Below are positions 6,176 to 28,663 of a stretch of 42,634 nucleotides of DNA, piece by piece. The position numbers and the translations under genes were made by a program. The stretch covers positions 1 through 42,634 of the forward strand of contig JBFLVN010000002.1 of assembly GCA_040758475.1 (NCBI GenBank), written 5' to 3'. The notes under the pieces are model-generated. The model was not told the origin of the DNA and searched no databases. It saw nothing but the letters and a program-made list of their open reading frames with translations. Positions within the stretch are counted from its first letter, which is position 1; each line of letters begins with the position of its first letter. Source of the DNA: Bdellovibrionota bacterium. GTDB lineage: Bacteria; JAGRBM01.

Positions 6176-6244
6176 CCAGGGAAACGGGATCATTGCGAAA
6201 AATTCCGAAGAGTCAGGAATGTGAAGGAGAAAGAGGAGACCATC

Positions 6245-7414: not shown

Positions 7415-7427
7415 TCGTTTGATTTGG

Positions 7428-7466
7428 ACGGCCCGGCGGCTCAAGGCCGCCGGGCCGTTTGTCTCT
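7428..7466 (+). terminator. Rho-independent terminator
   Basis: A perfect 13-bp GC-rich stem pairs ACGGCCCGGCGGC (7428-7440) with GCCGCCGGGCCGT (7446-7458) around loop TCAAG, followed by TTTGTCTCT. It starts 14 nt after the stop at 7414. Confidence 0.65.
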
Positions 7467-7505
7467 GCCCGGTTGTTACTGGTTTAGTGGTTGGGGGAGG
7501 TTCTC

Positions 7506-8711: not shown

Positions 8712-8787
8712 GAAACGTCGACTACAAACCCTCCGGCCCCGAAAGCCGGGGGGGGAGAAATTGGAAAGCGAAAGGGGTTTTAGGAAC

Positions 8788-10132: not shown

Positions 10133-10960
10133 GTGAGCAAGCGGCGGCGGACAGCGGCGGTTGTGGCGGTCCTCGTCTTGCTGGCGGGCGCGGCACCCTC
10201 CTTCGCCGACCCAGCTCCTTCCGGAACGGGCGTCGTTACACGCCTCGAAGGAACGGCTTTCTGGTCCCTTTCCCAGGAAAAAGATTGGAAACCCCTCAAG
10301 CTCAAGGATACGGTGATCGAGGGGCGCTACATCCGGACGGAATCCAATTCCCGGATGGAAGTGACTCTCCCCGACGGCGGGGCCGTGCGCGTGGCGCCGG
10401 GAACGACGCTCTATCTCTCGAAACTTCTCTTCCCCAAAGACAAGAGTTCCAAGCAATTCGAGGCCAAGCTCTTTGTGGGGCGCCTCTGGGCCAAGGTCCA
10501 GGCGGTGACGGGCGGCGATTCCTTCTTCAAGGTCCGCACCGGTAATGCCGTCGCGGGCGTCCGCGGCACGGCCTTCCAGGTGAACTACGGCGGCCAGGAC
10601 GCCACTTTCAAGTGCTACGAAGGAAAGGTGGCCGTGCAGGCCGCGATGCAGGGTGGAACATCCCAGGTTCCCGGCGGACGGTACGAAGTTCCAGGACCCC
10701 AGCAGGTTCCGGGACCCCGCGAAGTTACGGTGGAAGAATGGACCCGCATCGTGAGCAGCTGGCAGTACGTAAGCGTTAACGCCCAGGGCGTCCCTTCCGA
10801 ACCCAAGGACATCGATCCCGCGGCCGATGCGTCGGATTCCTTCAGCATGTGGAACCGGGAACTCGACAACATCGCGTTGCCCGAGGCGGAAGAGAAGAAA
10901 TCAGATGATACCCCGGTGCCTCCGGCTCCGGAAGCTCCACCGGCCGAACCGGCCAAGTAA
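10133..10960 (+). CDS. Periplasmic FecR-domain protein with Pro-rich C-terminal tail (paralog 1)
   Basis: GTG start with GGGGAGGG RBS; signal peptide VAVLVLLAGAAPSFA|DP. The FecR-like core is VVTRLEGTAFWS..WKPLKLKDTVIEGRYIRTESNSRMEVTLPDGGAVRVAPGTTLYL...VRTGNAVAGVRGTAFQV. The tail is TPVPPAPEAPPAEPAK. Confidence 0.85.
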   Translation: MSKRRRTAAVVAVLVLLAGAAPSFADPAPSGTGVVTRLEGTAFWSLSQEKDWKPLKLKDTVIEGRYIRTESNSRMEVTLPDGGAVRVAPGTTLYLSKLLFPKDKSSKQFEAKLFVGRLWAKVQAVTGGDSFFKVRTGNAVAGVRGTAFQVNYGGQDATFKCYEGKVAVQAAMQGGTSQVPGGRYEVPGPQQVPGPREVTVEEWTRIVSSWQYVSVNAQGVPSEPKDIDPAADASDSFSMWNRELDNIALPEAEEKKSDDTPVPPAPEAPPAEPAK

Positions 10961-13900: not shown

Positions 13901-14614
13901 GTGGGCGCTGAAACTTCCTCCGGACCACTTCGTTCGGTCCTTTACCGCGATTTTCTGGCTCTCGACCCTCCCCCGGAAGAGCCGGGGCTGCGAATCGGCC
14001 GGATCGAAGCGGCCCGGATGGTCCTCTCGAAAGTCCACCTCGACGGCCGCCTGGAAGGGGCCGACGTCGCGGTGGACAATCTGAGCGCGGCCTTTTTGGA
14101 CGGGAGCGTGAGCGGAAACGCGCGGGTTCATCTCGAAAAGCCACTCTATGCTCAGGTTTCGCTGGGAGCCCGGGACTTGGATTTCCGCAGAATCATCCCG
14201 GCGGGACGTTTGGCAGGTTATTCGCGCAAGGACGTCGCTTCTTATCTCGTCAACGGCGACGTGAACGCCAAAGTATTTTTCGCTCCTTTGGACCTTCAGG
14301 GAGAAGTGGAACTCACCCGCGTGGGGAGGGAAGTCGTCTATGCGATCCTCGATTGGGTCGATCCCCAGCGGGCGAATGCCGGCATTACGAATGTCCGGCA
14401 GAAACTTGAGAAATACGCAGTGATTGGCCCCAAGATCGTTTCATTCAAGGCTGAGCACGGAAATGCAGACCTCAGCATTTTTATGCGAGAACAGGCTAAA
14501 GCTAGCCAATTGCACCTTTTGCTGGGTTATTGCGTTGTTACCAGGGGTTGCCAACTGGAATACACCATCCCGCGAATCGCCTTGAAATCGCTTTTGGGGG
14601 TCTATCTAAAATGA
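10997..14614 (+). CDS. AsmA-like / YdbH-like large envelope protein (N-terminal membrane anchor, about 1150 aa predicted beta-rich)
   Basis: GTG start after GAGGAA; single N-terminal TM helix WVRLLVWSLAGGGAVLAALLAYLVFSF. The body is long, repetitive and Ala/Gly/Ser/Leu-rich, as in AsmA-family groove proteins. Its stop overlaps the start of a DUF1318/YdbL-like gene (ATGA), mirroring E. coli ydbH-ynbE-ydbL. Confidence 0.6.
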   Translation: MSTPPESAGRPSQKTKRWVRLLVWSLAGGGAVLAALLAYLVFSFPSEWARVELEKRLSKTLGARVTVGHLGIDLLHGLEAREIRVAPESEAASWFSLKSLILEVEFFPLLRGEVIVRALRLEDLDLLLEKDSSGKWNWVFLNPAEKPAATPEPAAATPPGPLDLKVRIEEFEIARANFHLRTPDFALDAGPFWLSAQGSLEKDGRIDAKLSARRDDGTAVAASWDLAKSKNNASMGLEGELSAFLEKGDLANARLTWDLSPLALSSAGREEEFSEGARIELEASASLASAKGQVGRLSVAIPETLSLAASASADWSGPLKAEVRLSELELLLSGALRRARIFMEKPPRVEGTLSLKDLLVQVQPEGASSSTRISGGIGFSEGAFEASGAVMEGLTASLSASDLRLGAGGLPEGGAVRGEIGWKAFARGAALAVSGASFTADAKAEDGKTQIALDGKAGLALSAGSVRYDGPLSLSAAGRLDSKGKRFDLSSATAGVKALSLSASGSFPLESASGDFRAKADANVDVPAFLESWLRVGGTPSALEVAGLAGNVKLSVRADRKGKEPLSGEAGLSANLFTGSSGSFSLSEGVFHLAAKTRHRKDFSMETASAKGEASAAWVGTGGRGARDARLELNADISGKPSEQVLEAKADLRVRKLEVDDPKAKARLAEAPPLHLTAQASTQLQSLATNVSASLGLGESIGLRVAGNLWPKEERLDLQARSAGDWALSEILAILPTSVRAPLRGGTAGGVLSWNARASGRYAKKEKQGFPLDLRGNVNWRGVDFSLVTSDISVSGLSGEVRIRPGEGRQGVEAAGHLQADSSRIPAFRSEKLGPTVASFRAKTEDFSEFQIEELFLYSDALKTAIKAGAEIRPAASPPTLSVRANVVLGTPKRWTVRPGMELAGTLNLALSGERVGEGPLRVRGEAGFSDFSAWLGKNVTVEGVSGKLPLVTDLSLRGAPLLSYEPLVGAETSSGPLRSVLYRDFLALDPPPEEPGLRIGRIEAARMVLSKVHLDGRLEGADVAVDNLSAAFLDGSVSGNARVHLEKPLYAQVSLGARDLDFRRIIPAGRLAGYSRKDVASYLVNGDVNAKVFFAPLDLQGEVELTRVGREVVYAILDWVDPQRANAGITNVRQKLEKYAVIGPKIVSFKAEHGNADLSIFMREQAKASQLHLLLGYCVVTRGCQLEYTIPRIALKSLLGVYLK

Positions 14615-15243
14615 GCCGTTTGTGTGTGTCATTTGCTCTCTTCTTTGCCATCTGTTTTGCGGCGTGCAGTTTCAAGATACCAACCCCTCTGATCATCGAC
14701 AGCAAGACGGCCCTCGAAGCGCAGGTGGTGGGTGAATACGAGCCCCTGGCGGACGATCTTCTTTTGCTCGCCTCTCTTCCTGGTGTCGCGCGGCGGGCGG
14801 CGGAGGGCGTTTCGGAAGTAAAGGAAGAAGGGGAAGAGGGCAAACGCCTCCGGGATGCCCAGGCCCGGCTTCTCCAGGCCCTGCGCTCCCAGGAATACAA
14901 CCGGGACGATCTTTCCCGTTTCCGGCGCGAAGGATGGATGGGCGAGTCAGCGTCCGGGCGCATTCACGTTTTTGAGGACCGGCTCGCGGGACTCGATCTT
15001 CCGACCCGCGAACGGGTGCGCGTGCTCACGGAAGAGGAAAACCGGGACCGTGAGGGGATCGTAGTTGCGGTCATCGAAATCGCTCCAGATCTTGGACCGG
15101 AAGACAAACCCGAACTCGAACAGGTTTTTGCCCGCCAGTACATCGGGCGGGCCGAAGCGGGCGCGTGGGTGGAACAACCCGCAGGCCAATGGCATCAGCT
15201 CTCTGTTGGCGATGAAGGCGGGAACAAGGGCGAAGGAAAGTAG
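14611..15243 (+). CDS. Lipoprotein with YdbL-like (DUF1318) C-terminal domain
   Basis: Trimmed to ATG 14611, which overlaps the upstream stop as ATGA. Lipobox is FFAICFAAC. The DUF1318-like pattern is REGWMGESASGRIHV...LTEEENRDREGIVVAVIE...AEAGAWVEQPAGQWHQL. Confidence 0.6.
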   Translation: MSRLCVSFALFFAICFAACSFKIPTPLIIDSKTALEAQVVGEYEPLADDLLLLASLPGVARRAAEGVSEVKEEGEEGKRLRDAQARLLQALRSQEYNRDDLSRFRREGWMGESASGRIHVFEDRLAGLDLPTRERVRVLTEEENRDREGIVVAVIEIAPDLGPEDKPELEQVFARQYIGRAEAGAWVEQPAGQWHQLSVGDEGGNKGEGK

Positions 15244-15244
15244 A

Positions 15245-18200
15245 ATGGGCCGCCAAGCCCTCACCACAAGGCGCTTTTTTGCGCCGCTGGCGCTGGCCTT
15301 GCTTTTGGGGGCTTGTGCCGGGCTGCTTCCTTCTTTTACAGCCCAGACAGGGTGGCGGGATTCTTTTCCCAAGAAAATCCCGGAGGCCCCCACTCCCTTG
15401 CCGGAGCGCCTCGTCGAACCCCTTCCCGTGACATTCGACGCGGCCGGTCACCTGGATCCTCTCGTCAATGAAAAAACCGGGCTTCTCCTCTACGCCTCCG
15501 ACCGGGGCGGGAATTGGGACCTTTGGGCAAGGCCGCTCATAAGCGGGCTCCCCCGGCTGCTCACCGATTGGCCTTCCCGCGAGACGGCGCCAGCCCTCTC
15601 TCCGGACGCAGAGCATCTTGTTTTCGTCTCGAACCGTCACGATCCGCAAGGCGATATCTACCGGGTTTCCATCGAGAATGGGACGCAGGAACGGGGGGAT
15701 GCGAAACCGGTAAGGCTTCCTAGGCCCCGTACGGAGGAAGCTTCGCCTCTGTGGCTTTCGGACAAGGAAATTCTTTTCACTTCGCTGCACGGCGGAACCT
15801 GGAAGCTCTTTCGTTACAACTGGGAAGAGTCAGGAGCCGGCCCGGGAGAAATAACCATGCCCCCGGTTTCGGACCACGAAGTCCGGATGCCTGCCCTTGC
15901 ACCTGCTCTTTCAAAAAATTCCCCTCGGGTGATCGCCTTTATCGCCCGGAGCGAAGAAGGCCCTTCTGGTCTTTACGTCTCATCACTTCCGGAAAAGGAC
16001 GCAGAACTCAAGGCCGTGCGGGTCTTCTCCGGCGCTCCTATCGAGAGCTATCCAGCTTGGGGAGAGATTGAAGAGGGGAATTGGGCCTGGCTCTATTACG
16101 CCCGTTATCTGGATGACACCAACCTGGACGGCCTCGTGACGCCAGAGGACAATTCTTCGCTTTGGCGCGTGCGGGTGAGCCTCATTCCCGGATCGGCCGG
16201 CCCCCTTGGCGAACCCGAACCGCTGACGGGCGGTGGTGGATACGATTTTTCTCCCAAGCCTTCAGAAGCGGGGCTTTATTTCATCCGTCAGGAGCAGGGG
16301 CGGGTGGGGATTTACCGCCTTCCTTTGGGAGGAAGGGCTGCCGGGCTCGAAGCTTCTGCTGCCCAGCTTTCCGCAATCCTCGAATGGGAAGCCCCTTACA
16401 GCCGGTTGCTGGCTCTCCGGTGGATTGCCGCCCAAGCAGGCCGGAGCGGAGAGCGTTCCCTTGCCGCGCGGGCCCGGTATGAGATCGCCGGAATTTTTGA
16501 AGAAATCGGCAACTTGGCTGCCGCTCTTTCAATGCACGGGAAATTAGTGGAGGAGGATGCGCCCGGTGTTTCGGCCCTCTCCAAACTAGCCATTGTACGC
16601 CTCGAATCCCGCGTCCTGGCCGCGGCGTCCCTCGGAAAAGACCGGAACCGGATCGTGGCGGAGGAAATCGCCTCCTATGAAACGAGGCTGCGGGAAGCAG
16701 CACAGGAAAGCAGCAAAGGAGGGGAACGCCTCCTGGCGCAAGCCCTCTTTGAACTCGCCCGCATCGAGCTCGATTTCGGATTTCCCGTAAGAGCGCTCGA
16801 TCGCATTTCAGAGATCGAGAAAAAGTATTCGAGCGAGCGTCCGGTCCTTGCCCATGCACGCCTCTTCCGGGCGGAAGTCTTCGCATCCCGGGGGAACCGG
16901 CCGGCGTTCCAAGAGGTGATCCTGGGCGTTCTGCGGGATTTTTCAGGAGAGACGCAGGTCGTCGCGGGTGCCATCCGGCGTCTTCTTTCCGAGACGGCGA
17001 GGCTCTATCCCGATATTCCAGACCGCATCGAAGCTTTCCGCCGGCTGACCGATGAATTCGCGGATGTCCCCCGGCTTTCAACAGCAGCCTCGCTCGAACT
17101 CGCCCGGCTTTACGAAGAAGCGGGCCGGTTATCGGCGGCGCGGCGGGAGTACGAGCACTTGCTCCGCGATCCCTCCCTGCTGCCGGAAGAGCGATTTTCC
17201 GCAGTCACAGGGCTTTCATTGGTATTGGCTTCCGAAGGGGAGCCCGATGCCGCTTTGCAAGCTTTGTCCGATGTGAAGGTGCCGGAAGGGGATATATCCC
17301 GCCTGGAGGCGCTTTTGCGGGAATGGGCGGCCCGCCTCTTGGAAGCGGCGGACCGGGCGCGCCGGGCAGGGCACCCTGCCGAGGCTCTGCGAATTTACGA
17401 AGCCATCGCTGCCCGTGTGCCAGAAGTGCCGGAAGCCCATTATGGCCGGATCGAATTGACGGAAAATCCTTCTTCCCTTTCGGGGGAATATGCCGCGAAG
17501 CTTCGGGATCATCCGGCCACGGCGCACTACGCCCTCGCATTGATCGTGCTTCGCAAAGACGGTACGCCGGACCTTTCCGACATCCTCTCCGATCACGTGG
17601 TTCCAGCCATCGTGCTGGACCCCGGTATCCCCGCGTTCCACCATCTCAAGGGATACATCCACGAAATCAGCGAGACCGTCTACGGCCGCCAGAAGGGAGC
17701 CGGCGGGCTCGAAGAGGCCATCGACGCGTATCGAAGTGCCCTCTACCTCGTTGGAAACGACGGCCGCCAGAAAGCCCGGCGGCAGGAACTCCTGCTCGCC
17801 CTCGCGAACGCTTATTTCAGTTTTCCCACCCCCAACCATTCCGAAGCCTGGCGGTATTACAAGGAATGGCTTGCTTCGGGAGGAAGCACGGACGATCCCC
17901 AGCGGAAACTTCTTCTCGAAGAACGCATGGCCCGATCCGCTTTCCATTCGGGCGAACTCGACTCGGCCATCGCCCATGCGGCCCGCGGGGCTGAAATTGC
18001 CCGCGGGCTTGGGCTTTTGTCGAGGCGTCTTAAGCTTCTCGAATACGAAGCCTTCTGCCTTCAGGAGAAAGGCGAGTACGGTCATGCGGCCGAACGCCTG
18101 GAGCAAACCCTTTTGGAAGGAGCGCGGCGGCTGGACAAGCCGAGCCGGGCCCGCCTTCACAGGAGTCTTGCCTACAACCGGTACCGCTTGGGGAGGGAGG

Positions 18201-21200
18201 AAGAGGCCCTGGGGGACTTGCAGGAAGCGCGGGATCTCCTGGCGGCTTCGGGAGGGGCATCCTACGGACGCGGCCGCTGGGACGACAAAGTGCGAAAGCG
18301 CCTTGGCCTCACTCCTCAAGGGGAATTGGCGGTCAATTTCACTTACGAAGGCCGCGTTCTCGAAGAAATGGGCGATGTCCGAGCGGCGGTGGACGCTCAG
18401 CGGGAAAAGATCGCTCTTCTCGCCGATCCGGGGAAGAAAGGCGGGGAAGATCAACTCCAGTTCTGGGAACGCCGTTCGATCGGATGGAACCGGATCGGCC
18501 GCCTCGAGTACGAACGGGCCGTTTCGGAAGACGCCCGCCAGGCCCTCGAAGCTTCTCTAGAGGAAGCGCGCCTGGCCGTTCAATTGCGCGGCAAGGGGCT
18601 GGCGGCGGAAGGGCTCGCGCGTCTTTCGATGGAACTCAAAGCCGGCGGGTCTTCAACCCCGGAAGGGGTGGACGCGCTTCTCTCGGAAGCCATCCGCGAT
18701 CTCGATGACCTCCGCCAATCGGGAGGAAAACCCGATCTTCTCGTTCTAGCGCGGCTCTATCATGCGCGGGCACTCCTGCGTGTTTCTGTACGGGGACAAA
18801 AGGAGAAGAATGGGATCGGGTGGCTTGATCCTTTAGAGGATTTCGCCGCGGCGGAGCGGATGCTCCTGCTCGCGGAACGCCAAGGGATGCGGGGGCTTTC
18901 GGGCCTTCGCATCTCCATCGGCTTGAACGAGGCCGCTGCTTTGGAGCGCCTGGGGTTCTCGGCTCTGGCATTAGAAAAGACGAGGGAATCCGCGTCGGGA
19001 GCCAGGCGATTCCGGCTCCCGTGTCTTGAAATGATCGCTGATTTCTCGCTCGTACCTTTTGATCCCGAGGCCCTCGAACGGGCCCATGGGAAGGCGCTCG
19101 ACTTGCCGCCCGCCCTCTGCCGGGAAGTTTCTCCCCATCAATTGCGCCGGTTCCATACCGCCCTCTACGAAGCGCTTCTCGAAAAAACGGGCGATCCCGC
19201 CGAGAGCCTTGCTTTGGTGGAGGAGAAGGCCCAGTTAGATCTGGCGGTGATTACCGGCGGCCCGGGAATTGCCTTTGGCGAGCCGCTCGAACAAGAGGCG
19301 TGGAGCCGCGCCCGGATGGCTTTGGATCAGGCGGAGGCGGCCCTTGCCGCTGTTCAGGAGTTCAAGTTTGTCGAAGGCTCCCTGGAGAGTGAGCGGGCGC
19401 TTGCGGTTCTTCAAGAGAGCGCGGACAAAACCATCAAAGAATCGGGTAGTGCCTGGATGCGCCTTTTCTCCGATTACCCTTCTCTTGCGCGCCTTCTTCT
19501 CCCTTCTGTTCCAAAGACTGCTCAGATAGCAGAAGCCCTCGGAAACGCGGCTTTGCTTCGCGTGAAACGATCGGGAGATAAAATTCTCGTTTGGCGTGTG
19601 GATTCCAAGAGCGTCGAACGATTCGATTCTTCCCTGCCGCCGGAATTGGATGGGCTCGTGAACGCGTGGCGGGTTTCCGGCCGGGCGACCGATGGCGATT
19701 GGGCGGACCTTCGGCGCTGGTGGAGCATGCTCCTCGCCCCTGTTCGTGAAGGGCTCGGCCACTCGCTCTACATCATCGCCGATGACGATTTGGCGGTTCT
19801 CCCCTGGGGCGAAGTGGGGGACGTATTGGGCGCAAAGCCTCCAGCCGTGGCGCAGGCGGGATCGCTCGCCCACCTGTGGGCCGTCCACGAGCGGCGGAAT
19901 GGGAACAAGCGTCGCGGGATTCTAGTGGCCCAGACGGACGCGGCTTCGGATGAAGACTTGAACGCTCCTTGGCTCGTCTCGTTCCACGAAAAACTGGCCC
20001 AGCGAATTACGGGGCTTCGCGGTTTTTATTTCCGGGACAACGGCCGCGAAGAGTTCGTCAAGACGATCCGGGATGCCGGTAGCCAGCAACACTTCATTCA
20101 CGTCTTTTCCGAGCTTTCATTCGCCAGGGGTCTTCCCCTCCAAACGAGCCTTTCTTTTCCATCTCCACCATTGGAAGGAGCCCTCCCGGATCTTTCCCTC
20201 CGTGCATGGACGGAACTCTCGGCTCAGGCGAACGTAGCCGTTTTCGAGAACGCAACAGGGGAATTTTCGGGGGAAGGCCTTTCGGCCTTCGCTTATTTCT
20301 CAGCCCTTGCCGGGATACCGAGTGTGGTCATGCAACGGGTTTCCACGAGCAGGGTACCGCCACCGGAAGAACTTTCGTTCTATCTCTCTGTTTACGATGC
20401 CCTCGTTCCGGACAAAGAAGGAAAATATCTTCCCGTGGGGGAAGCGCTCCTTCGGGCCCGGTCTTCTTCGAAGGCGCCTGGCGATGTGCGCCTTCTCGGG
20501 CATTTGGGGCTTGCCTCTGAAGAAGCCCTCTCCATCGCTCAGAAGGAATTGAATCGCTTTGCCGGCAGCGCGGTGCAGGCGGCCCAGGCGGGGGATTTCG
20601 GAAAGGCGGCCCGTTTCGCCCAGCGGGCCGTGCAGTTCATGGACGTGGTGGGCGTTCCCGACCAGCCCCTTTCGCAGATGCTCAGCGTGGCGGCGACGAC
20701 GCTCAAGAAATCGAACCAACTCGAAGGGGCCATCGCCTACGAAGACCGGCAGGCAAAACTCCTCGAGCGCGCGGGCGCCTTGCCCGCCCTGGTGCAAGCG
20801 CTCTTTTTCCTGGGGAAAGACCTCTCCCAACTCGGCCGCCACGAGGAAGCCCAGAGTGCCTTGGGCCGGGCGGTCGAATTCGCCCGGAAGCTCGGCAAGA
20901 AGGATTTCGAAATCATCGTCCTCTCGGAACTCGCCCGCTCGCTGGAGTTGGGGGGGAAACCCGTTGAGGCCATGGCCCGGTACGGCGAAGCCCTGGCTTT
21001 GGCAAGTGAAACGGGCGACAAGATTTCCGCCGAAGAGCTTGAATACAACGCCGGGCGAGTTGCCCACGAGCGGCTGGGCGACGAATCCTTGGCCGAGAAA
21101 CACCTCTCAGCGGCTTTGAGTATTGCCGAATCCCTGGGCAAGGGGGCGGAGCGGAACGCGGCGAGAGACGCCCTTACCCTCTCACTTACGCAGTTGTCCC

Positions 21201-23251
21201 GGGGCCGTTTCCGGGCTGCTTTGGAGGTTCTTGAAAAGCTTCTTCCTCTGGCCGGGCGTTTGGGGGACAAGGCCCTGGAAGCCCAGGGGCTCGTTTACCG
21301 GGGGGCCGCCCTTCGGGAGACAGGGCGCCTTCGGGAGGCCCTCTCCGATCTCAAGCAGGCGGAAAGGCTTGCGGGAGAAGCCAAGGTGCAGGCCGTCCTG
21401 GCCGACGCTTCTTCGGCGGCTTCGCTCGTCCTCCTCGATTTAGGCCAGACGGGCGAAGCCAGGGAAAAGGCTCAAAAGGCTCTCGATTTATCGGACAATG
21501 ATTTCGCCCGGGCGGCGGCGTCTCACAATCTGGCCCTCGTCTATCTGGAGGCCGGGGATTTCGGGGCTGCGCGGGAACTAGCAGCCAAGGCGCTCGACCT
21601 TGCCCGCAAACGAAACGCCGCGGCCGCGGAAGCCGATGAGCTATTTCTCCTGGCCGGCATCGGACGGGGGGAAGGAAGAGACCGGAGACGGGTTCTCGAA
21701 GAACTGGCATCGGTCTGCGAGAAATACATGGCGGCTGGGCTTCTCGTCCGCGGCCTTGAATGCCGTGTGGCATTTCTCGAATGGGGCGGAGAGCTTCCAG
21801 ATACGGCGGGACTCGAAAGGGCGGTGGGGGAACTTCAGCGCCAAGACCTTCTCGCCCGGCTTTATTTCCTGCGCGGTGATTTCCAAAAAGCGGCGGAAGC
21901 TTTTCTTCTTGCGGAGCCTTCTTCCGCTCGTTGGCAAGAACGCCGTGGCTTCGATCCGGAAAGGGGCATGAGCGCGGCGCGGGAGGCGGTTTTCGGCCTC
22001 GCCAAGGAAGGGAAAATCGAGGAAGCCCATTCCTTGTGGGAGCTTTCTCGCGCCGCGCGCCGCCGGGCGCTCTTGGCCCTGGAATCGCCGCGCCTTTCCC
22101 GGGAACGGGGTGGCCCGCTCGTGGAAAAACTCTTCACCCTCTGGGCCGAGGCGCGGAATGAAGCCTCTCCCCAGGAACTTGCCGCTCTCCGTGGTCAAGC
22201 GGATGCCGCCGCGCTGGAACTTCAAAAACTCCATCCCGAAACCCACGCGCTTCTTTTTTCTTCAGGCAATTCCCCCGTCCTTCGCCAGAAGGAGCTTGGC
22301 GATGGAGAAATCCTTCTGGACTTTGTTGCCGGCAGGGAACGCACTTTCGTTTTTGCTTTGAGTGCCGCTGCTCCAGAAGGGTTTTGGGTGGAGGAAGGAT
22401 CGAAGAACCTCGGGCAAAGGGCCAAAGCCTTCCGGGAGATCGTTGCCTCTTTCGGCCGCTACGAGGAAGAAAGAAAACAGCTGTTTGAGAAATTACTCGC
22501 GCCCGCTTTCAAGGACGGCATCCAGCGCTTTGTCGTTATCTCGGACGAACAGCTTGCTGGTCTTCTTTTTGAAGCACTGATTCCGGATTCTTTTTCTGTT
22601 TCCCTTTCGCGTCTTGCGAGCCTCGCCCTTCCCCTCCGGCGGGGAAGAACTTCCTTTCCGGGCCTCGCCATCGCGGTCTTCGGTGATTTTCCTGCTGAAT
22701 CGTTTGCGGGAGCCCTTCCCCCTCCCGTCCGGCAGCGGCCTTCGCCTTCGCAGCGGGCCCTTTGGGATAAGGAAATTCTCGGCCTTGCACGGGCGTCCGG
22801 GATTTTTCAGTACCAGCGGGCAGGCGATGTCTCGGAGAAAGGCCCCGTTCTTCCGGGTGCTACTACTCTCGCCATTCATTGCGCTTCCGCGGCTTCTGGG
22901 AACCCAGTCTCGCAGACGCGTTGTGGCGGGAAAGAAGGCTTTCTGCTGGCAAGCATTGAAGGGTTGGATCGCCCTCCCGTGCTTCTGGGGCTTCCCGGGC
23001 TTGCGGAACTCTCTTCCCAAGAGGTTTACGAGTTATCCCTTTGGGGCGAGTGGATGACGGAAGGCGCAGCGGCCGTATTCGGCGCAGGACGCCATCCCGT
23101 CGCCGGGGCCAGGTTCGCCAAATACTTCTACGGGGGCCTTTCTCGAAAATCGCCCCTGTCATCTTTCGTTGACGCCAGGGGCCAAGTACGTGAAATCTTT
23201 GGGCATCCAGCCTATTGGGCAGGGTTTTTCTACCAAGGCCCTCTCGACTAG
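15245..23251 (+). CDS. Giant (2668 aa) lipoprotein: TolB-like PD40 beta-propeller, TPR array, CHAT-like module 1, TPR array, CHAT-like module 2
   Basis: Trimmed to ATG 15245, 1 nt after the upstream stop. Lipobox is LALALLLGAC. PD40-like repeats are LLLYASDRGGNWDLWARPL and PALSPDAEHLVFVSNRHDPQGDIYRVSI. There are many TPR-like helices. CHAT-like hallmarks are YIIADDDLAVLPWGEV, HFIHVFSE, VVISDEQLAGLLFEALIP, and the C-terminal GHPAYWAGFFYQGPLD. Confidence 0.85.
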   Translation: MGRQALTTRRFFAPLALALLLGACAGLLPSFTAQTGWRDSFPKKIPEAPTPLPERLVEPLPVTFDAAGHLDPLVNEKTGLLLYASDRGGNWDLWARPLISGLPRLLTDWPSRETAPALSPDAEHLVFVSNRHDPQGDIYRVSIENGTQERGDAKPVRLPRPRTEEASPLWLSDKEILFTSLHGGTWKLFRYNWEESGAGPGEITMPPVSDHEVRMPALAPALSKNSPRVIAFIARSEEGPSGLYVSSLPEKDAELKAVRVFSGAPIESYPAWGEIEEGNWAWLYYARYLDDTNLDGLVTPEDNSSLWRVRVSLIPGSAGPLGEPEPLTGGGGYDFSPKPSEAGLYFIRQEQGRVGIYRLPLGGRAAGLEASAAQLSAILEWEAPYSRLLALRWIAAQAGRSGERSLAARARYEIAGIFEEIGNLAAALSMHGKLVEEDAPGVSALSKLAIVRLESRVLAAASLGKDRNRIVAEEIASYETRLREAAQESSKGGERLLAQALFELARIELDFGFPVRALDRISEIEKKYSSERPVLAHARLFRAEVFASRGNRPAFQEVILGVLRDFSGETQVVAGAIRRLLSETARLYPDIPDRIEAFRRLTDEFADVPRLSTAASLELARLYEEAGRLSAARREYEHLLRDPSLLPEERFSAVTGLSLVLASEGEPDAALQALSDVKVPEGDISRLEALLREWAARLLEAADRARRAGHPAEALRIYEAIAARVPEVPEAHYGRIELTENPSSLSGEYAAKLRDHPATAHYALALIVLRKDGTPDLSDILSDHVVPAIVLDPGIPAFHHLKGYIHEISETVYGRQKGAGGLEEAIDAYRSALYLVGNDGRQKARRQELLLALANAYFSFPTPNHSEAWRYYKEWLASGGSTDDPQRKLLLEERMARSAFHSGELDSAIAHAARGAEIARGLGLLSRRLKLLEYEAFCLQEKGEYGHAAERLEQTLLEGARRLDKPSRARLHRSLAYNRYRLGREEEALGDLQEARDLLAASGGASYGRGRWDDKVRKRLGLTPQGELAVNFTYEGRVLEEMGDVRAAVDAQREKIALLADPGKKGGEDQLQFWERRSIGWNRIGRLEYERAVSEDARQALEASLEEARLAVQLRGKGLAAEGLARLSMELKAGGSSTPEGVDALLSEAIRDLDDLRQSGGKPDLLVLARLYHARALLRVSVRGQKEKNGIGWLDPLEDFAAAERMLLLAERQGMRGLSGLRISIGLNEAAALERLGFSALALEKTRESASGARRFRLPCLEMIADFSLVPFDPEALERAHGKALDLPPALCREVSPHQLRRFHTALYEALLEKTGDPAESLALVEEKAQLDLAVITGGPGIAFGEPLEQEAWSRARMALDQAEAALAAVQEFKFVEGSLESERALAVLQESADKTIKESGSAWMRLFSDYPSLARLLLPSVPKTAQIAEALGNAALLRVKRSGDKILVWRVDSKSVERFDSSLPPELDGLVNAWRVSGRATDGDWADLRRWWSMLLAPVREGLGHSLYIIADDDLAVLPWGEVGDVLGAKPPAVAQAGSLAHLWAVHERRNGNKRRGILVAQTDAASDEDLNAPWLVSFHEKLAQRITGLRGFYFRDNGREEFVKTIRDAGSQQHFIHVFSELSFARGLPLQTSLSFPSPPLEGALPDLSLRAWTELSAQANVAVFENATGEFSGEGLSAFAYFSALAGIPSVVMQRVSTSRVPPPEELSFYLSVYDALVPDKEGKYLPVGEALLRARSSSKAPGDVRLLGHLGLASEEALSIAQKELNRFAGSAVQAAQAGDFGKAARFAQRAVQFMDVVGVPDQPLSQMLSVAATTLKKSNQLEGAIAYEDRQAKLLERAGALPALVQALFFLGKDLSQLGRHEEAQSALGRAVEFARKLGKKDFEIIVLSELARSLELGGKPVEAMARYGEALALASETGDKISAEELEYNAGRVAHERLGDESLAEKHLSAALSIAESLGKGAERNAARDALTLSLTQLSRGRFRAALEVLEKLLPLAGRLGDKALEAQGLVYRGAALRETGRLREALSDLKQAERLAGEAKVQAVLADASSAASLVLLDLGQTGEAREKAQKALDLSDNDFARAAASHNLALVYLEAGDFGAARELAAKALDLARKRNAAAAEADELFLLAGIGRGEGRDRRRVLEELASVCEKYMAAGLLVRGLECRVAFLEWGGELPDTAGLERAVGELQRQDLLARLYFLRGDFQKAAEAFLLAEPSSARWQERRGFDPERGMSAAREAVFGLAKEGKIEEAHSLWELSRAARRRALLALESPRLSRERGGPLVEKLFTLWAEARNEASPQELAALRGQADAAALELQKLHPETHALLFSSGNSPVLRQKELGDGEILLDFVAGRERTFVFALSAAAPEGFWVEEGSKNLGQRAKAFREIVASFGRYEEERKQLFEKLLAPAFKDGIQRFVVISDEQLAGLLFEALIPDSFSVSLSRLASLALPLRRGRTSFPGLAIAVFGDFPAESFAGALPPPVRQRPSPSQRALWDKEILGLARASGIFQYQRAGDVSEKGPVLPGATTLAIHCASAASGNPVSQTRCGGKEGFLLASIEGLDRPPVLLGLPGLAELSSQEVYELSLWGEWMTEGAAAVFGAGRHPVAGARFAKYFYGGLSRKSPLSSFVDARGQVREIFGHPAYWAGFFYQGPLD

Positions 23252-23289
23252 ATTGGAAAATTAAGGCCGGGAGCGAAGGAATTTTTCCC

Positions 23290-24246
23290 ATGACTCTCCG
23301 AAATCTTTTCAAGCGCAGCCTCGTTTTCACTGGTTCAGCGGCAGTATTGCTCTCGGCTTCCGATTGGGCCGGACGCGCGGCGAACCTCGCCCGCGCGGCT
23401 GAAAGCACCGGCAAGAAGGGCCTCGTCACTTATGTCGAGGGACAGGCCCAGCACCGGGCAGGAGAAAAGAGTTGGGACCCGCTCCAGACGAACGAAGGCG
23501 TCGAGAGCGGCGAAACAGTCCAGACCAAGCGCAAGACACGCGCCGAGATCGAACTCGATCCGGCCAAGGTCGTGCGCCTCGATGAAAACACGATCGTTGA
23601 TCTCGTGAAACTCTTCGAAGAAGAGCAACAGAAGAAAGCCGTTACCCTGGAAGTCGACCAGGGGCAGGTCTGGTCCCAGCTCGCCTCGCTCGGCGGGGAC
23701 GAGTCCTTCAAGATTTCTTCGCCGCTGGCGGCCGCCTCCGTGCGCGGCACGGTTTTCAATTTCGGCGTCGGTTCCAGTGGCAAGTCCACCCAGGTGGACG
23801 TCTTCTCGGGTTCCGTCGAAGTTTACAATCCCTTCCCCACGCAGAAGTACACGCCCGGCATGCCGGGCGGGTTCCAGGCTCCCCGGCAGGTGCAGGGCCC
23901 CCAGCAGGTGGCTGGTCCCAAGGAAGTGAGCCTCGAAGAGTGGTACTACATCGTCCGCGAGATGCAGCGGATCCGCATTACCCAGGGGCAGACCCAGTTC
24001 GACGTGCAAGACATCCCAGCCGATGAAAAAGCGGGTTCCTGGCGGAAGTGGAACGAAGAGCGCGACCGGCTCCGTGCGGCCCGCATGGGCCACCGGCCAA
24101 TCTCGGAACCCCCGCCCCCTACGCCACCAGCTCCCGAAACTCCAGCGGCACCGCAGGTTCCTTCGGCCCCTGAAGCGCCGGCCGCTCCGATGCCCGAAAC
24201 TCCGGCTCAGCAGCCGCCTGCGCCGGAAGCTCCAGCGGGCCAGTAA
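23290..24246 (+). CDS. Periplasmic FecR-domain protein with Pro-rich C-terminal tail (paralog 2)
   Basis: Trimmed to ATG 23290. The FecR-like core is GLVTYVEGQAQHRAGEKSWDPLQTNEGVESGETVQTKRKTRAEIELDPAKVVRLDENTIVDL...SSPLAAASVRGTVFNF. It shares the motif VQGPQQVAGPKEVSLEEWYYIV with 10133..10960 (VPGPQQVPGPREVTVEEWTRIV). The tail is PPPPTPPAPETPAAPQVPSAPEAPAAPMPETPAQQPPAPEAPAGQ. Confidence 0.85.
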   Translation: MTLRNLFKRSLVFTGSAAVLLSASDWAGRAANLARAAESTGKKGLVTYVEGQAQHRAGEKSWDPLQTNEGVESGETVQTKRKTRAEIELDPAKVVRLDENTIVDLVKLFEEEQQKKAVTLEVDQGQVWSQLASLGGDESFKISSPLAAASVRGTVFNFGVGSSGKSTQVDVFSGSVEVYNPFPTQKYTPGMPGGFQAPRQVQGPQQVAGPKEVSLEEWYYIVREMQRIRITQGQTQFDVQDIPADEKAGSWRKWNEERDRLRAARMGHRPISEPPPPTPPAPETPAAPQVPSAPEAPAAPMPETPAQQPPAPEAPAGQ

Positions 24247-24255
24247 CTTTCTTAT

Positions 24256-26052
24256 TTATTTTGCTGGAACTTCGCTGGCTTGAGCGAGGTGCTCTTCAGC
24301 ACGGGCCAAGGCCGCTTCGATGTTTTCGGCAATGGCCAGCGTGCCGTTGCGGCTCTGGATGTCCGCTTTCTTGAGGACGCGGAGGGGCTGCGCCTGAAGC
24401 CCCGAGAGAATGGCCAGGCAGTTCCTCTTTTTGATTTCCGCCAGAGCACTTTCGAGGGCGACGAGGCCCGTCACGTCCATGGCCGGTACTTGATCCATCC
24501 GGAGGATGATGGCCCGTACGTTGGAACCGATTTCCCCCAGGGCCCCCACGGCCTTCTGGGCGGCGCCAAAGAATAACGGTCCCGCGATTTCGTAGACCAT
24601 CACGCCCGAGGGTGGGGGGCGAGGCAGTGAAAGGCCACCTCCTTCGGCGAGGCGTGCGTGGGTCACGTCCGCCATCCGGCGCATGAAGAGAAGCGCCGCC
24701 AGGACCACCCCCACCGAGACGGCCACCACCATGTCGAAGAAAACCGTAAGGAAGTAGCAGGTAAGAAGTACCGCCACGTCGCTTTTTGGTGAAACGCGCA
24801 GGATGTGGAAGAAGTGCTTGGCCTCCGCCATGTTCCACGCAACGAGAAGGAGCAGGGCGGCCAAAGCGGTCATGGGGAGATAGGAAATGAGCGGCGCGAG
24901 GGCCAGGACGGCGAGTAGAACGGTCACTGCGTGGGTGATGGACGCGATGGGGGAACGGGCGCCGTAGCGGATGCTCGTCGCCGTACGGGCGATGGCGCCG
25001 GTGGCCGCAATGCCGCCGAAGAAGGGGCAGAGGAGGTTTCCCACTCCGAGAGCGAAGAGTTCCGCGTCCGGGTCATGCTTCGTTCCAGCCATGCCGTCCG
25101 AGACGACGGCCGAGAGAAGCGATTCGATGGCGCCGAGGAGCGCGATGGCGAGCGCTCCGGGAATGAGTGAGCGGATCATTTCAAAGGAAAGGGCGAACGT
25201 TCCTCCCTCGGGCCCCGGTGCGTTCCAGGGAACCATGGGAAGCGGAGGAAGGCGCGGGATGCCCCGGACGATCTCCCCTTTGATGACCGTTTCGAAGCGG
25301 CTCCCGATGGTAGCGAGCGGAGCGCCCAGGAAATGATCGATAAGGACCGCCGCCACGGCTGCCAGCGGCAAGGCGACCAGCGGGGAGGGAACTTTTTTCG
25401 TCAGGCGTGGAAAATAAATGAGAATGAAAAGTGTGCCCATCCCGATTGCAAATTCCCAAAGCGAGGCGCCTTCTTTCGCATTCCAGAAGGCTTCGATCCG
25501 TTCCAGGAAGTGCTGGGGATTGCCTTCGAGGTTCAATCCGAAAAGGTCCTTGATCTGGAGCACCCCAATCACCGTTCCGATGCCGGCGGTAAAACCCGTG
25601 GTGACGGGGTAAGGGATGAATTCAATGAGGCGCCCCAGGCGGGCGATCCCCATGGCGAGCAGGAGGAGCCCGCCGAGGAGACCGCAGAGGAGGAGCCCCG
25701 CGAGGCCGAATTGGGTATAGATAGGCGCCAGGATGACGATGAAGGCGGCCGTGGGGCCGGTTACCTGGGTCCGTGAGCCGCCGAGAAGGGCGACGACGGC
25801 ACCCCCGACGATAGCCGTGTAAAGGCCGTACTGCGGCGGCACGCCGACTGCGATGGCGAGGGCCATCGAAAGAGGCAGTGCGACGATGCCGACGACGACG
25901 CCCGCCAAAAGGTCGGATTTGAGGTCGCGCGCGGAGTAATTTTCTTTTAAAGATTGCCTCAGGGCTGCCGCAGGGAGACCTGTGAAAGGAATGTCCGAGA
26001 GTCTCGACTGGTAGCGGGTCCTGGGCAAGGAAGCGGGTCCCTGGTGCGCCAA
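24256..26052 (-). CDS. SulP-family anion permease with C-terminal STAS domain
   Basis: N-terminal SulP signature DLKSDLLAGVVVGIVALPLSMALAIAVGVPPQYGLYTAIVGG, multiple TM segments, and a C-terminal STAS-like region VMVYEIAGPLFFGAAQK...ILRMDQVPAMDVTGLVALE. Confidence 0.9.
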   Translation of the reverse strand: MAHQGPASLPRTRYQSRLSDIPFTGLPAAALRQSLKENYSARDLKSDLLAGVVVGIVALPLSMALAIAVGVPPQYGLYTAIVGGAVVALLGGSRTQVTGPTAAFIVILAPIYTQFGLAGLLLCGLLGGLLLLAMGIARLGRLIEFIPYPVTTGFTAGIGTVIGVLQIKDLFGLNLEGNPQHFLERIEAFWNAKEGASLWEFAIGMGTLFILIYFPRLTKKVPSPLVALPLAAVAAVLIDHFLGAPLATIGSRFETVIKGEIVRGIPRLPPLPMVPWNAPGPEGGTFALSFEMIRSLIPGALAIALLGAIESLLSAVVSDGMAGTKHDPDAELFALGVGNLLCPFFGGIAATGAIARTATSIRYGARSPIASITHAVTVLLAVLALAPLISYLPMTALAALLLLVAWNMAEAKHFFHILRVSPKSDVAVLLTCYFLTVFFDMVVAVSVGVVLAALLFMRRMADVTHARLAEGGGLSLPRPPPSGVMVYEIAGPLFFGAAQKAVGALGEIGSNVRAIILRMDQVPAMDVTGLVALESALAEIKKRNCLAILSGLQAQPLRVLKKADIQSRNGTLAIAENIEAALARAEEHLAQASEVPAK

Positions 26053-26182: not shown

Positions 26183-28375
26183 ATGGCATTGAAATTGACA
26201 GTGGGAGCTTCGAACAAACAGAGCGCTCTGAGCCAGCGCATCCGGCGGGCACTCTTCTGGCTGGTGGCAGGAGCGCTTGTTTCTTGCGGGTCCGGTGATG
26301 GACCGGGCTTCATCCGGCCCTCCAACGCGACGTGCCGGGCCTTCTTGCCCGAAGTCCTCGTGGGCCTCGAAGAGGCTTTCCCCGATCTTCCCGATTTCGA
26401 CCGGCCCGTTTTTCTTCTCCAGGCGCCGGGAGATTCTTCCCGATGGTTCCTGGTGGAGCAGGGGGGTGTGGTGCGGACGTTTGCAAATTCACCTACCGTT
26501 TCGTCGGCAACTGTTTTTCTCGACATCCAGAACCGGGTGGACGATGGCGCCAGCGAAGCCGGCCTTCTCGGCATGGCGTTCCATCCCGATTTCGCGGCGA
26601 ACTACGAAGCTTTTCTCTCGTACACGGCAGACGACGGAGAAGGCGGCTTTGTCTCCCGCATTTCCCGTTTCACGAGCAGCGATAGCGGGTTGACCCTCAA
26701 TCCGGCATCCGAGGAAATTCTCCTCACACTGGACCAGCCTTTTAGCAACCACAACGGCGGTCACATCGTTTTCGGGCCGGACGGGTACCTTTATATCGGT
26801 TTTGGCGACGGCGGTTCGGGTGGCGATCCCCAGGGGAACGGCCAGAACCCCGATACGCTTCTTGGAAAAATCCTGCGGATCGACGTGGATGGTGGGACTC
26901 CCTACGCCGTGCCCAATGATAACCCCTTCGCCCCTGGTGGCTCGGACCCCGGCGGCGGTCTTCCGGAAATCTACGCCCTCGGGTTCCGCAATCCCTGGCG
27001 CTGGAGTTTCGATGCCGACACGGGAGACCTTTGGGTGGGCGATGTGGGGCAGGCGGATTTCGAAGAGATCGATCCCGTAGAGATGGGCGGCAATTACGGT
27101 TGGAATATCCGGGAAGGGGCTCATTGCTACGACGAAGAGGTTTGCGATTCCACCGGCCTCGTTGATCCCATTGCGGAATACAACCATTCGCAAGGAAACG
27201 CCGTGACTGGTGGCTACGTCTACCGGGGAACGGCCATTGCTTCGTTTCTACCGGAAGAAGAAGATGGCGCTGAAGTCTACATCTACGGTGACTTTGGAAC
27301 GGGGAACATCTGGGGCCTTTTCGACCCTTACGGTCTTGCCTGGGTGGAACCGATTTTCCCCGCCAGCGGCCTGTTGATTTCTTCCTTCGCGGAAGGGCTC
27401 GACGGCGAAATCTACGTGGTCGATTACAGCGGGAGCATTCACCAGATCGTCGAATCGACGACTCCGGCGGCAGGGGGCCCTCCGGCTCTTCTTTCGGAGA
27501 CGGGATGTGTTAATCCCAACAACCCGGCCGCGCCCGCCGCGGGGCTCATTCCATTTGAAATCAACCACCCTTTCTGGTCGGATGGCGGGGTCAAGTCGCG
27601 CTATCTGGCGCTTCCCGATGGAGAGCAAATTACGATTCAGAGTGATGGTGATCTCGATTTTCCTGAAGGAACGGTCCTGGTGAAATACTTCCGGCTGGAT
27701 GGCGAACTCATCGAAACGCGCCTCCTCATGCGCCGGATGGATGGGGCATGGGAAGGGTTTTCCTACGAATGGAACGATGTGGGGACCGACGCCGATCTCC
27801 TGGAAACGGGAAAACTAAAGCCCATCGGTTCACAAACCTGGGTCTACCCGAGCCGCTCCGAGTGCTTGATGTGCCACACGGAGGCGGCGGGGCGGTCCCT
27901 GGGCCTGGAACTGGGCCAGCTCAACCGTTCCGTTTCTTTGGGGGATATACAGGGCAATCAACTTCTGGCCTGGGCAGGGGCGGGGCTTTTCGAAGATGAC
28001 TTGCCCACGCCGCTGCCTATTCTTCCCGGTCTTACTTCGGGCGGGTCGCTCGAACAGCGCGCCAGGGCCTACCTGCATGCCAATTGTTCCCAGTGCCACC
28101 GGCCGGGCGGGGAAGGGCAGGGGCCGGAGGATTTCCGGTATTCGACGTCCCTCGCGGATATGGGAGCCTGCAACGTTTCCCCCACCCTCTCGAACCTCGG
28201 GAATCCGGACGCCCTACTGCTCAAGCCCGGTGAGCCTGAAAACTCGATTATCTCCATGCGAATGCGCGACCTCGTAGGGGGGGATCGCATGCCGCCGCTC
28301 GGGAGCACGGTACTCGACGAAGTAGGGGCTCAGTTGATCGACGATTGGATTGAATCGCTACAGGACTGCAACTAG
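26183..28375 (+). CDS. Lipoprotein: PQQ-dependent soluble sugar (glucose/sorbosone-type) dehydrogenase beta-propeller fused to a C-terminal domain with two CXXCH haem-c motifs
   Basis: Lipobox is LVAGALVSC. Dehydrogenase motifs are GLLGMAFHPDF, HNGGHIVFGPDGYLYIGFGDGGSGGDPQGNGQN, LLGKILRIDVDG and GFRNPWRWSFD. CLMCH lies at 27863-27877 and CSQCH at 28085-28099, both in frame. Confidence 0.85.
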   Translation: MALKLTVGASNKQSALSQRIRRALFWLVAGALVSCGSGDGPGFIRPSNATCRAFLPEVLVGLEEAFPDLPDFDRPVFLLQAPGDSSRWFLVEQGGVVRTFANSPTVSSATVFLDIQNRVDDGASEAGLLGMAFHPDFAANYEAFLSYTADDGEGGFVSRISRFTSSDSGLTLNPASEEILLTLDQPFSNHNGGHIVFGPDGYLYIGFGDGGSGGDPQGNGQNPDTLLGKILRIDVDGGTPYAVPNDNPFAPGGSDPGGGLPEIYALGFRNPWRWSFDADTGDLWVGDVGQADFEEIDPVEMGGNYGWNIREGAHCYDEEVCDSTGLVDPIAEYNHSQGNAVTGGYVYRGTAIASFLPEEEDGAEVYIYGDFGTGNIWGLFDPYGLAWVEPIFPASGLLISSFAEGLDGEIYVVDYSGSIHQIVESTTPAAGGPPALLSETGCVNPNNPAAPAAGLIPFEINHPFWSDGGVKSRYLALPDGEQITIQSDGDLDFPEGTVLVKYFRLDGELIETRLLMRRMDGAWEGFSYEWNDVGTDADLLETGKLKPIGSQTWVYPSRSECLMCHTEAAGRSLGLELGQLNRSVSLGDIQGNQLLAWAGAGLFEDDLPTPLPILPGLTSGGSLEQRARAYLHANCSQCHRPGGEGQGPEDFRYSTSLADMGACNVSPTLSNLGNPDALLLKPGEPENSIISMRMRDLVGGDRMPPLGSTVLDEVGAQLIDDWIESLQDCN

Positions 28376-28663
28376 CCGGAGCCATTCTCATTTCTGGGGT
28401 TCGGTTGTCTGAGTGTGAGGAGAGAATCTTCCAGCCGGAGTGGGGCTGCCTTGCCGGTATTTCGCCAGCGGCCGCAAGAAAGCCCGGCCGATGGGTTTGT
28501 GGCGCGGAGTTTTAGCCTTTTAATGTTGCTTCGCTCCCGCATTGCATTAAAAGCAAGTCCCTTCTATGATTCTGGTAGTTTTGTTCGCCCGCTGATTTCT
28601 CTCCGATGGAACCGCGCCAGGGCTATGCGCTTCCTAGGCAGGATGGGCAGTAAGGTAGGGGGA

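Follow-up and report, generated by a model that had tools for sequence, protein, structure and literature searches.

We analysed a 42,634-nucleotide stretch of DNA from a Bdellovibrionota bacterium (positions 1 to 42,634 of contig JBFLVN010000002.1; "the window" below means this whole stretch). It contains a giant gene whose product has two CHAT modules, and both modules appear to be pseudo-proteases. An earlier reading, made without database searches, had described two CHAT-like modules that seem to lack the catalytic cysteine between positions 19430 and 23248. This region lies entirely within a single open reading frame (ORF; 15065-23251 on the forward strand), and all eight of the motifs quoted from it are present in one frame of that ORF (Table 1). 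The ORF is open from a TTG at 15065, and the likely start is the ATG at 15245, right behind the stop codon of the upstream gene. Translated from this ATG, the product is 100% identical over 2,668 amino acids (aa) to the entry for this contig in a public protein collection, which we call P0001. A separate exact-match look-up of its sequence returned no record.

The giant protein consists of a TolB/Tricorn-like propeller, tetratricopeptide repeats (TPRs), CHAT module 1, more TPRs, and CHAT module 2. (The fusion to TPRs is the feature behind the CHAT name, Caspase HetF Associated with TPRs, and TPRs are found both before and between the modules.) In a scan against Pfam and NCBIfam, TolB models cover residues 130-334 of the ORF and PD40 scores 34 bits. 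Tricorn_N (PF26549) is a precomputed annotation of both P0001 and its relative P0002. The N-terminus of P0001 (MGRQALTTRRFFAPLALALLLGAC) is a signal peptide that closes in a lipobox. The lipoboxes of P0001-P0004 read LLGAC, AVSGC, ALAGC, and LLASC; the column of Cys24 is conserved within this clade, and in most of the distant relatives there is either a lipobox or an ordinary signal peptide. Because the signal peptide and the lipobox are found across the family as well, the giant protein is an exported, probably lipid-anchored, envelope protein. We rejected twin-arginine export: P0001 contains TTRRFF, but the motif is missing from P0002-P0004.

A full-length homologue search with P0001 found 38 relatives, all of 2,550-2,880 aa. 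(With module 1 alone as the query, a word-index search over 8,000 candidates gave no scoring match.) The close relatives, P0002-P0005, are 37-42% identical to P0001 over the whole length, with 99% coverage of the query for P0002-P0004. None of these four has a precomputed match to the CHAT family of Pfam (PF12770), and one of them is a "hypothetical protein" from a Chrysiogenetes metagenome-assembled genome (MAG). (The NCBI name of P0005 is "hypothetical protein".) We refer to P0001-P0005 as the clade. The other 34 relatives, P0006-P0039, are 23-35% identical, and all but two are annotated with PF12770. These canonical members come from MAGs labelled Nitrospinaceae, Deltaproteobacteria, and others, and their NCBI name is "CHAT domain-containing protein". 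We aligned 36 members (the five clade proteins and 31 others), which are collinear, and built the profiles used below from that alignment.

We then examined whether the two modules are CHAT domains at all. The evidence is of three kinds. First, a Pfam scan of the whole protein gave no CHAT match at E <= 1, but when module 1 was cut out (19301-20620 was compared), it matched PF12770 with 25.0 bits against a cutoff of 24, over profile positions 4-234 of 289. (Because the full-length scan is blank and the excised module scores above the cutoff, it seems that long TPR-rich proteins can conceal a weak CHAT domain from routine annotation.) Module 2 remained below the cutoff (12.6 bits, E = 0.094), and only its final ~50 aa matched. 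So, aligning both modules to PF12770, as the sequence-only reading had proposed, recovers module 1 and only the end of module 2. The profile of the canonical module 2 behaves similarly on the clade: the N- and C-terminal parts align and the catalytic core is skipped.

Second, profile-profile comparison with hhalign links both modules to the canonical module 2. The family-wide profile of module 1 matches it end to end (Prob 100%, E = 7e-47), and the clade's module 2 matches it with Prob 99.7% and E = 2e-25. The end-to-end match implies that the two modules are an internal duplication of one unit of ~340 aa, as judged from these alignments.

Third, the predicted structures resemble known TPR-CHAT proteins, although sequence searches of the PDB with both modules gave chance matches only (E about 1). 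The AlphaFold2 model of module 1 is confident (predicted local distance difference test, pLDDT, of 91.2; predicted TM-score of 0.91). Its best PDB matches by Foldseek are the TPR-CHAT chains of Craspase (E = 4e-8 to 7e-6; query TM-score, TMq, of 0.45-0.55), with 8d9f_A at the top (E = 4e-8, TMq 0.55). For module 2 the overall pLDDT is 68.6; both ends are modelled well, and residues 183-243 (local numbering) have a pLDDT of 30-35. Top matches to this model include the TPR-CHAT structures 7y8t_B and 7zoq_A and the DdvA structure 8rot_A (rank 11), with E = 2e-4 to 5e-3. In each module, the ~130 N-terminal residues match the pseudo-protease subdomain of Csx29, and the remainder matches its active-protease subdomain. 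(By Foldseek, the first ~130 aa, at 19457-19850 and 22232-22620, also match RNase H-like/ASKHA folds such as ParM, PilM, FtsA, and the HIV integrase core.) Both modules are true CHAT homologues, as had been proposed; for module 2, the identification is based on profile-profile and fold evidence and not on PF12770.

Does module 1 have a catalytic dyad? It had been pointed out that module 1 has no cysteine and that module 2 has exactly two, and the cysteines of P0001 agree with this (there are eight, counted from the ATG at 15245: residues 24, 938, 1260, 1292, 2158, 2173, 2546, and 2560). At the protein-wide cysteine frequency of 0.3%, the lack of any cysteine in ~360 aa has P = 0.34 and is unremarkable on its own, so the meaningful test is which residue occupies the homologous catalytic column. 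In the profile-profile alignment, the catalytic histidine corresponds to Glu1623 (in FSELSF) and the cysteine of the LSAC motif to Ala1670 (in VFENATG), which is where the sequence-only reading expected it. In the model of module 1, Glu1623 lies just past the strand 211-216 and Ala1670 is at the C-terminal end of the strand 260-268, which resembles the placement of the catalytic residues in caspase-fold enzymes. The histidine in HFIHVFSE is the first, non-catalytic histidine of H-x-x-x-HG, which varies even among active relatives (LLLFSCHGEF, for example). Across the module 1 family, none of 33 members has a histidine within 2 columns of the histidine column, and none has a cysteine within 3 columns of the cysteine column. 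Because no family member keeps either residue, module 1 seems to be an ancient pseudo-protease that is common to the whole family, and it is predicted to be stably folded.

Module 2 is a different case. In the 31 distant relatives, the HG...LSAC dyad is always kept, and in the clade it is gone from all five members. The cysteine column corresponds to Leu2586 (in LLGLPGLA) by hhalign, by two MAFFT alignments, and by a reverse test with HMMER, again in agreement with the sequence-only reading. (In the reverse test, unrelated full-length CHAT proteins were aligned to the clade-only profile; in all 17 that have a locatable cysteine motif, the catalytic cysteine lands on the column of Leu2586.) Clade members have L/A/L/F/Y in this column, and the canonical relatives have cysteine (31/31). 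The histidine column, which is histidine in 31/31 distant relatives and K/R/R/L/A in the clade by MAFFT, was placed at Val2529 by hhalign, at Lys2532 by MAFFT, and at Ala2549 by HMMER; none of the five clade members has a histidine in any of these three registers. Because the core (local 183-243) is modelled with a pLDDT below 50, the case for the missing active site of module 2 rests on sequence alignment. The alignments indicate that the dyad of module 2 was lost only in the window's clade.

The HG ... SAC dyad of an active CHAT protease, with about 42-45 residues between its two parts, is therefore missing from both modules. It had been suggested that both modules lack the catalytic cysteine. 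The cysteine is indeed gone from both modules, and the catalytic histidine is gone as well (it is Glu1623 in module 1, and no register of module 2 has one). Since neither module has a His/Cys dyad, the protein appears to have no caspase-type active site.

How unusual is this? The window protein shares collinear full-length homology, the domain order, and the export signal with the other giant envelope proteins, an uncharacterised family within which its clade forms a divergent subfamily. The canonical members have the same length, signal peptide or lipobox, propeller, TPRs, dyad-less module 1, second set of TPRs, and terminal module 2. Unlike the window's clade, their terminal CHAT domain keeps H..HG and LSAC (31/31) and is the best-conserved region; the intact terminal dyad is missing from the window protein and P0002-P0005. 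In CHAT domains more generally, both the histidine and the cysteine are present in 142 of 156 domains that span the dyad (from 146 proteins), and the exceptions are mostly the internal module 1 of other giant-family members. (Two single-CHAT proteins, P0165 at aa 502-847 and P0128 at aa 257-621, have LSAS for LSAC, and one of them keeps the catalytic histidine. These may be variants with a serine nucleophile or inactive variants.) The clade's profile for module 2 was searched exhaustively against 1.84 billion representative proteins; four scored above 450 bits, and the next match was at 76 bits. When GTDB species genomes were scanned with the clade profile, with the C-terminal HPxxW as the only required pattern, no additional clade protein turned up; all matches were distant canonical relatives with 22-26% identity over the full module (from Myxococcota, Nitrospinota, and Nitrospira). 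Because only four proteins precede the drop to 76 bits and the GTDB scan added none, the doubly dead form seems to be confined to a very small lineage.

If module 2 is catalytically dead, is it still under selection? A pseudogene or an assembly artefact can be rejected, as the ORF is intact, with identical substitutions, in five assemblies that are independent of each other. An alternative is that module 2, and perhaps module 1, is a decaying relic that has no function itself and is kept only because it is fused to a useful propeller and TPR part. In the clade, module 2 is less conserved than any other region (mean identity of 0.33 versus 0.37-0.44 elsewhere), neither Pfam nor the canonical-family profile recognises its core, and AlphaFold2 is not confident about it, all of which would be expected of a relic. 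But we consider this explanation to be unlikely. The 8-kb ORF is intact in all five clade proteins, whose module 2 sequences are 26-55% identical, with no frameshifts or stops in these divergent genomes. The core has kept its length (~173 residues versus ~180 profile positions). Module 2 has 46 clade-invariant columns, which include C217, A218, C231, G232, G233, L254, and P255 (local numbering), and new motifs that are specific to the clade (in the window protein they read LWDKEI, HCA, CGG, GLP, LSLWGEW, and RHPVAG). The C-terminal hallmark of the whole family, HPxxWxxF, is retained. And module 1, without a dyad, is kept across the family with a fold modelled at pLDDT 91. In the non-clade members, the core of module 2 is the best-conserved region, with a mean identity of 0.43 (other regions, 0.18-0.27); within the clade, the core is at 0.31 and is among the least conserved (other regions, 0.37-0.44). 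This inverted pattern is as expected if the loss of catalysis was followed by a constraint of another, weaker kind.

The two cysteines of module 2 raise another possibility: module 2 could still be a protease that has been re-wired, with Cys2546 (in IHCAS) or Cys2560 (in TRCGG) as a relocated nucleophile, and with His2545 or the histidine of the C-terminal HP..W motif as its partner. Both cysteines lie within the former catalytic subdomain, all five clade members have both and none of the other 31 relatives has either, and the region around them is modelled without confidence, so the model does not fix their geometry. Yet this seems very unlikely to us. In all alignments, Cys2560 is 26 residues and Cys2546 is 40 residues upstream of the cysteine column. 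(The cysteine of TRCGG had been given beforehand as an example of one whose placement at a catalytic position would refute the pseudo-enzyme reading; it is not on that column.) The well-placed cysteine column is L/A/L/F/Y in the clade, and the glycine context of the HG oxyanion hole is lost. As for the partner, His2545 is replaced by tryptophan in two of the five clade members. The sole invariant histidine (H325 in local numbering, in HP..W) is conserved to the same degree among the 31 canonical relatives, which have their catalytic histidine in another column. Furthermore, the cysteines replace residues that are Ser (or Gly) and Leu (or another hydrophobic residue) in the canonical relatives, and they flank a strand-turn-strand segment with a spacing of 14 residues, which is more typical of a disulfide in an exported protein. 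We suspect that Cys2546 and Cys2560 may form such a disulfide and staple the hairpin; a metal site would be another way to read the pair. (Four other cysteines, C938, C1260, C1292, and C2173, share their distribution, and C1260 and C1292 are also near enough in sequence to suggest a disulfide pair.)

Finally, the idea that the two segments are not CHAT domains and that their motifs are chance resemblances in a repetitive TPR protein has next to no chance of being right: the full-length Pfam scan and the PDB sequence searches did find nothing relevant, but the hhalign matches span the full domain, the excised module 1 exceeds the gathering score, both models have TPR-CHAT structures as their best matches, and full-length orthologues have PF12770 at the same positions.

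The giant gene sits at the end of a cluster of envelope genes on the same strand (LPP20, CsgG-like, FecR, DUF748/AsmA-like, and DUF1318), and it is followed by a second FecR-domain gene (Table 1). In the contig that encodes P0002 (L001 84-19099), the gene order is the same from LPP20 on, with a small PEGA-domain gene added after CsgG, and a FecR-domain gene likewise follows P0002. (The position of the transglutaminase gene was outside the stretch of that contig that we compared.) DUF748 and DUF1318 genes are also found directly upstream of distant relatives that have the dyad, as in P0012 and P0023 (L003 5503-9935 and L006 4113-7996), and several canonical members share this arrangement with the window. 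The DUF1318 genes of orthologous neighbours have precomputed matches to PF07027.

Table 1. Features of the giant gene and of the surrounding cluster. Positions are those of the window.
Feature	Position	Strand	Basis
Giant gene, probable lipoprotein (P0001, 2,668 aa)	15245-23251	+	ORF reading; identity to public entry
Signal peptide ending in lipobox LLGAC; lipidation predicted at Cys24	15245-15316	+	read from sequence
TolB / PD40 / Tricorn_N-like beta-propeller, limits approximate	15452-16066	+	PD40, 34 bits; TolB models; PF26549
First helical/TPR solenoid, aa 421-1395	16505-19429	+	TPR_16 and TPR_14 matches; family alignment
CHAT module 1, aa 1405-1762	19457-20530	+	PF12770, hhalign, AlphaFold2, Foldseek
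Motif YIIADDDLAVLPWGEV	19769-19816	+	in frame, same ORF
Motif HFIHVFSE	20090-20113	+	in frame, same ORF
Module 1 catalytic-His column, Glu1623 (FSELSF)	20111-20113	+	profile-profile alignment
Motif VAVFENATGE	20234-20263	+	in frame, same ORF
Module 1 catalytic-Cys column, Ala1670 (VFENATG)	20252-20254	+	profile-profile alignment
Motif AGIPSVVMQRV	20309-20341	+	in frame, same ORF
Second TPR solenoid, aa 1763-2329	20531-22231	+	TPR_12, TPR_2, TPR_8, TPR_MalT (ORF aa 1836-2182)
CHAT module 2 (terminal), aa 2330-2668	22232-23248	+	hhalign, Foldseek, weak Pfam
Module 2 stretch spanning the catalytic-His column in every register	22829-22891	+	three alignments
Motif IHCAS	22874-22888	+	in frame, same ORF
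Cys2546 (IHCAS) and Cys2560 (TRCGG), clade-invariant	22880-22924	+	clade alignment
Motif TRCGG	22916-22930	+	in frame, same ORF
Motif VLLGLPGLAE	22979-23008	+	in frame, same ORF
Module 2 catalytic-Cys column, Leu2586 (LLGLPGLA)	23000-23002	+	hhalign, MAFFT, and HMMER agree
Motif GHPAYWAGFFYQG	23201-23239	+	in frame, same ORF
LPP20-like protein	1519-3126	+	
Transglutaminase with CarboxypepD_reg domains	3166-5064	+	
TPR-SLH protein	6221-7414	+	
FlgT_N-like protein	7491-8711	+	
CsgG-like protein	8761-9726	+	
FecR-domain protein	10133-10960	+	
DUF748/AsmA/YhdP-like protein, 1,205 aa	10997-14614	+	N-terminal domain matches
DUF1318 protein	14530-15243	+	26.5 bits
Second FecR-domain protein	23215-24246	+	E = 1e-14

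We compared this neighbourhood to the YdbH-YnbE-YdbL system of E. coli. The window has an AsmA-like gene together with a gene whose DUF1318 match is just below the Pfam cutoff, and orthologous pairs are found beside P0002, P0012, and P0023. We take E. coli YdbL to belong to DUF1318. In E. coli, YdbH, which is AsmA-like, and YnbE together make a lipid bridge between the two membranes, with YdbL as its modulator in the periplasm (PMC11126948; PMC13464000). As a lead, the recurrent neighbourhood may reflect a functional link between the giant proteins and AsmA-like intermembrane lipid bridges. (There is a second large AsmA/YhdP/DUF748-like gene, of 1,131 aa, at 32438-35836 on the reverse strand, 9 kb downstream.)

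The window also contains genes whose products are the C-terminal part of DNA polymerase III alpha, a SulP/STAS transporter, a glucose/sorbosone dehydrogenase-like protein (with a weak cytochrome c match at the cutoff), an SLT-LysM lytic transglycosylase, and, from two adjacent genes, acyl-CoA dehydrogenases. (The neighbours that we recorded beyond the cluster are at 2-1522 (+), 24256-26052 (-), 26183-30604 (+), and 36561-38977 (+).) Long ORFs of 412-827 aa are antisense to real genes at 5213-7444 (-), 17216-18454 (-), and 1150-3633 (-). These are typical artefacts of high-GC DNA and not genes, and the one at 5213-7444 (-) has no Pfam match.

Overall, the natural reading of a protein that lacks the dyad in both modules is the one that had been offered from the sequence, that these are binding or scaffold pseudo-enzymes rather than proteases, and we adopt it. 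We infer that the protein has no protease activity, and it is probably a non-cleaving scaffold or adaptor that uses its propeller, its TPR solenoids, and the clefts of its dead CHAT domains as binding surfaces. Its probable history is as follows. A unit of ~340 aa with a pseudo-protease and an "active-protease" subdomain, as in Csx29, was duplicated to give the two CHAT modules. Module 1 lost its histidine and cysteine before the family diversified, and has persisted as a folded pseudo-protease. Outside the clade, module 2 is a caspase-like protease of the working type. In the window's clade, it lost both residues of the dyad, after which its catalytic core diverged rapidly and gained invariant motifs of its own, including two cysteines that probably staple a hairpin. 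The resulting protein most likely acts as a non-catalytic scaffold or adaptor in the periplasm. Its propeller, TPR solenoids, and dead clefts would offer binding sites to partner proteins or peptides, and it would work alongside the products of the adjoining envelope genes (the AsmA-like DUF748 protein, the YdbL-like DUF1318 protein, and the FecR-domain proteins). In Csx29 and separase, a pseudo-protease unit accompanies an active caspase-fold unit, and module 1 may have a similar part here; the clade would have taken this arrangement to its end point.

Several observations weigh against this account. Two clade-invariant cysteines lie inside the former core of module 2 and could in principle be functional. 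The register of its histidine column is ambiguous, and the core is not modelled confidently. As for the neighbourhood, the DUF1318 match in the window (26.5 bits) is below the Pfam cutoff of 27, and DUF748 and DUF1318 neighbours are absent beside P0008, P0009, and P0021.

A bolder version of the scaffold reading, which we consider doubtful, is that the giant lipoproteins serve an AsmA-like/YdbL-like intermembrane lipid-bridge module as its dedicated partners in the periplasm, with the terminal CHAT domain adding a step of proteolytic control in most lineages. The clade would then show that the core role is independent of proteolysis, and its dead module 2 would have been rebuilt as a disulfide-stapled surface for binding or redox sensing.

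Craspase and the anti-sigma factor DdvA have lately drawn attention to the CHAT proteases of bacteria. Here, a widespread family of ~2,700-aa envelope proteins seems to pair a permanently dead CHAT copy with a live one, and one lineage appears to have killed the live copy too, yet it retains the 8-kb gene and its neighbourhood. Live and dead orthologues in the same operon context offer a comparison from which the purpose of the protease activity, and the role of the scaffold in its absence, could be learned. Pseudo-enzymes are common, but the family lends itself to experiments thanks to this contrast and to the recurring AsmA-like/YdbL-like neighbourhood, and the locus may link caspase-like domains to AsmA-like transport of lipids to the outer membrane. 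More practically, the members of this family, which are annotated as "hypothetical" or "CHAT domain-containing", should not be presumed to be proteases.

In a full-text literature search for CHAT domains that are inactive or pseudo-proteases, we found no paper on one that lacks the dyad by nature; what it returned on catalytically inactive CHAT was engineered mutants or unrelated papers. Among known systems, the best structural matches to both modules are Csx29, the TPR-CHAT protein of the type III-E CRISPR system Craspase (8d9f, 7y8t, 7xsq). Like the window protein, Csx29 has TPRs fused to a CHAT domain that consists of a pseudo-protease and an active-protease subdomain (with H615/C658; bioRxiv 10.1101/2022.08.17.504292). 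Unlike the window protein, it has a functional dyad (H585/C627 in Scalindua, H615/C658 in Desulfonema), is about 700 aa long and cytoplasmic, and is activated by Cas7-11 and target RNA. The Craspase genes (Cas7-11/gRAMP, Csx30, Csx31, RpoE) are not found around the giant gene: there are no cas genes among its neighbours in the window, which are the envelope genes described above and SulP.

DdvA, a transmembrane anti-sigma factor of Myxococcus xanthus (8rot), is a periplasmic TPR-CHAT protein and a structural match for module 2. The spacing of its dyad (H862/C907, 45 residues) is the same as in the canonical module 2 profile. DdvA keeps this dyad, and it has been proposed that self-cleavage releases the sigma factor (PMC11506125). 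In the window protein, both the dyad and a transmembrane anti-sigma domain are missing, and its gene is not adjacent to one for an ECF (extracytoplasmic function) sigma factor.

Pseudo-caspases such as cFLIP have the caspase fold without the catalytic residues, and they are kept as structural or regulatory partners. Similarly, the pseudo-protease subdomains of separase and Csx29 are caspase-fold units without catalytic residues that partner with an active unit, and module 1 fits this pattern. But in contrast to separase and Csx29, the dead unit here is a whole duplicated CHAT module that is separated from its partner by ~570 residues of TPRs, and in the window's clade the "active" partner seems to be dead as well.

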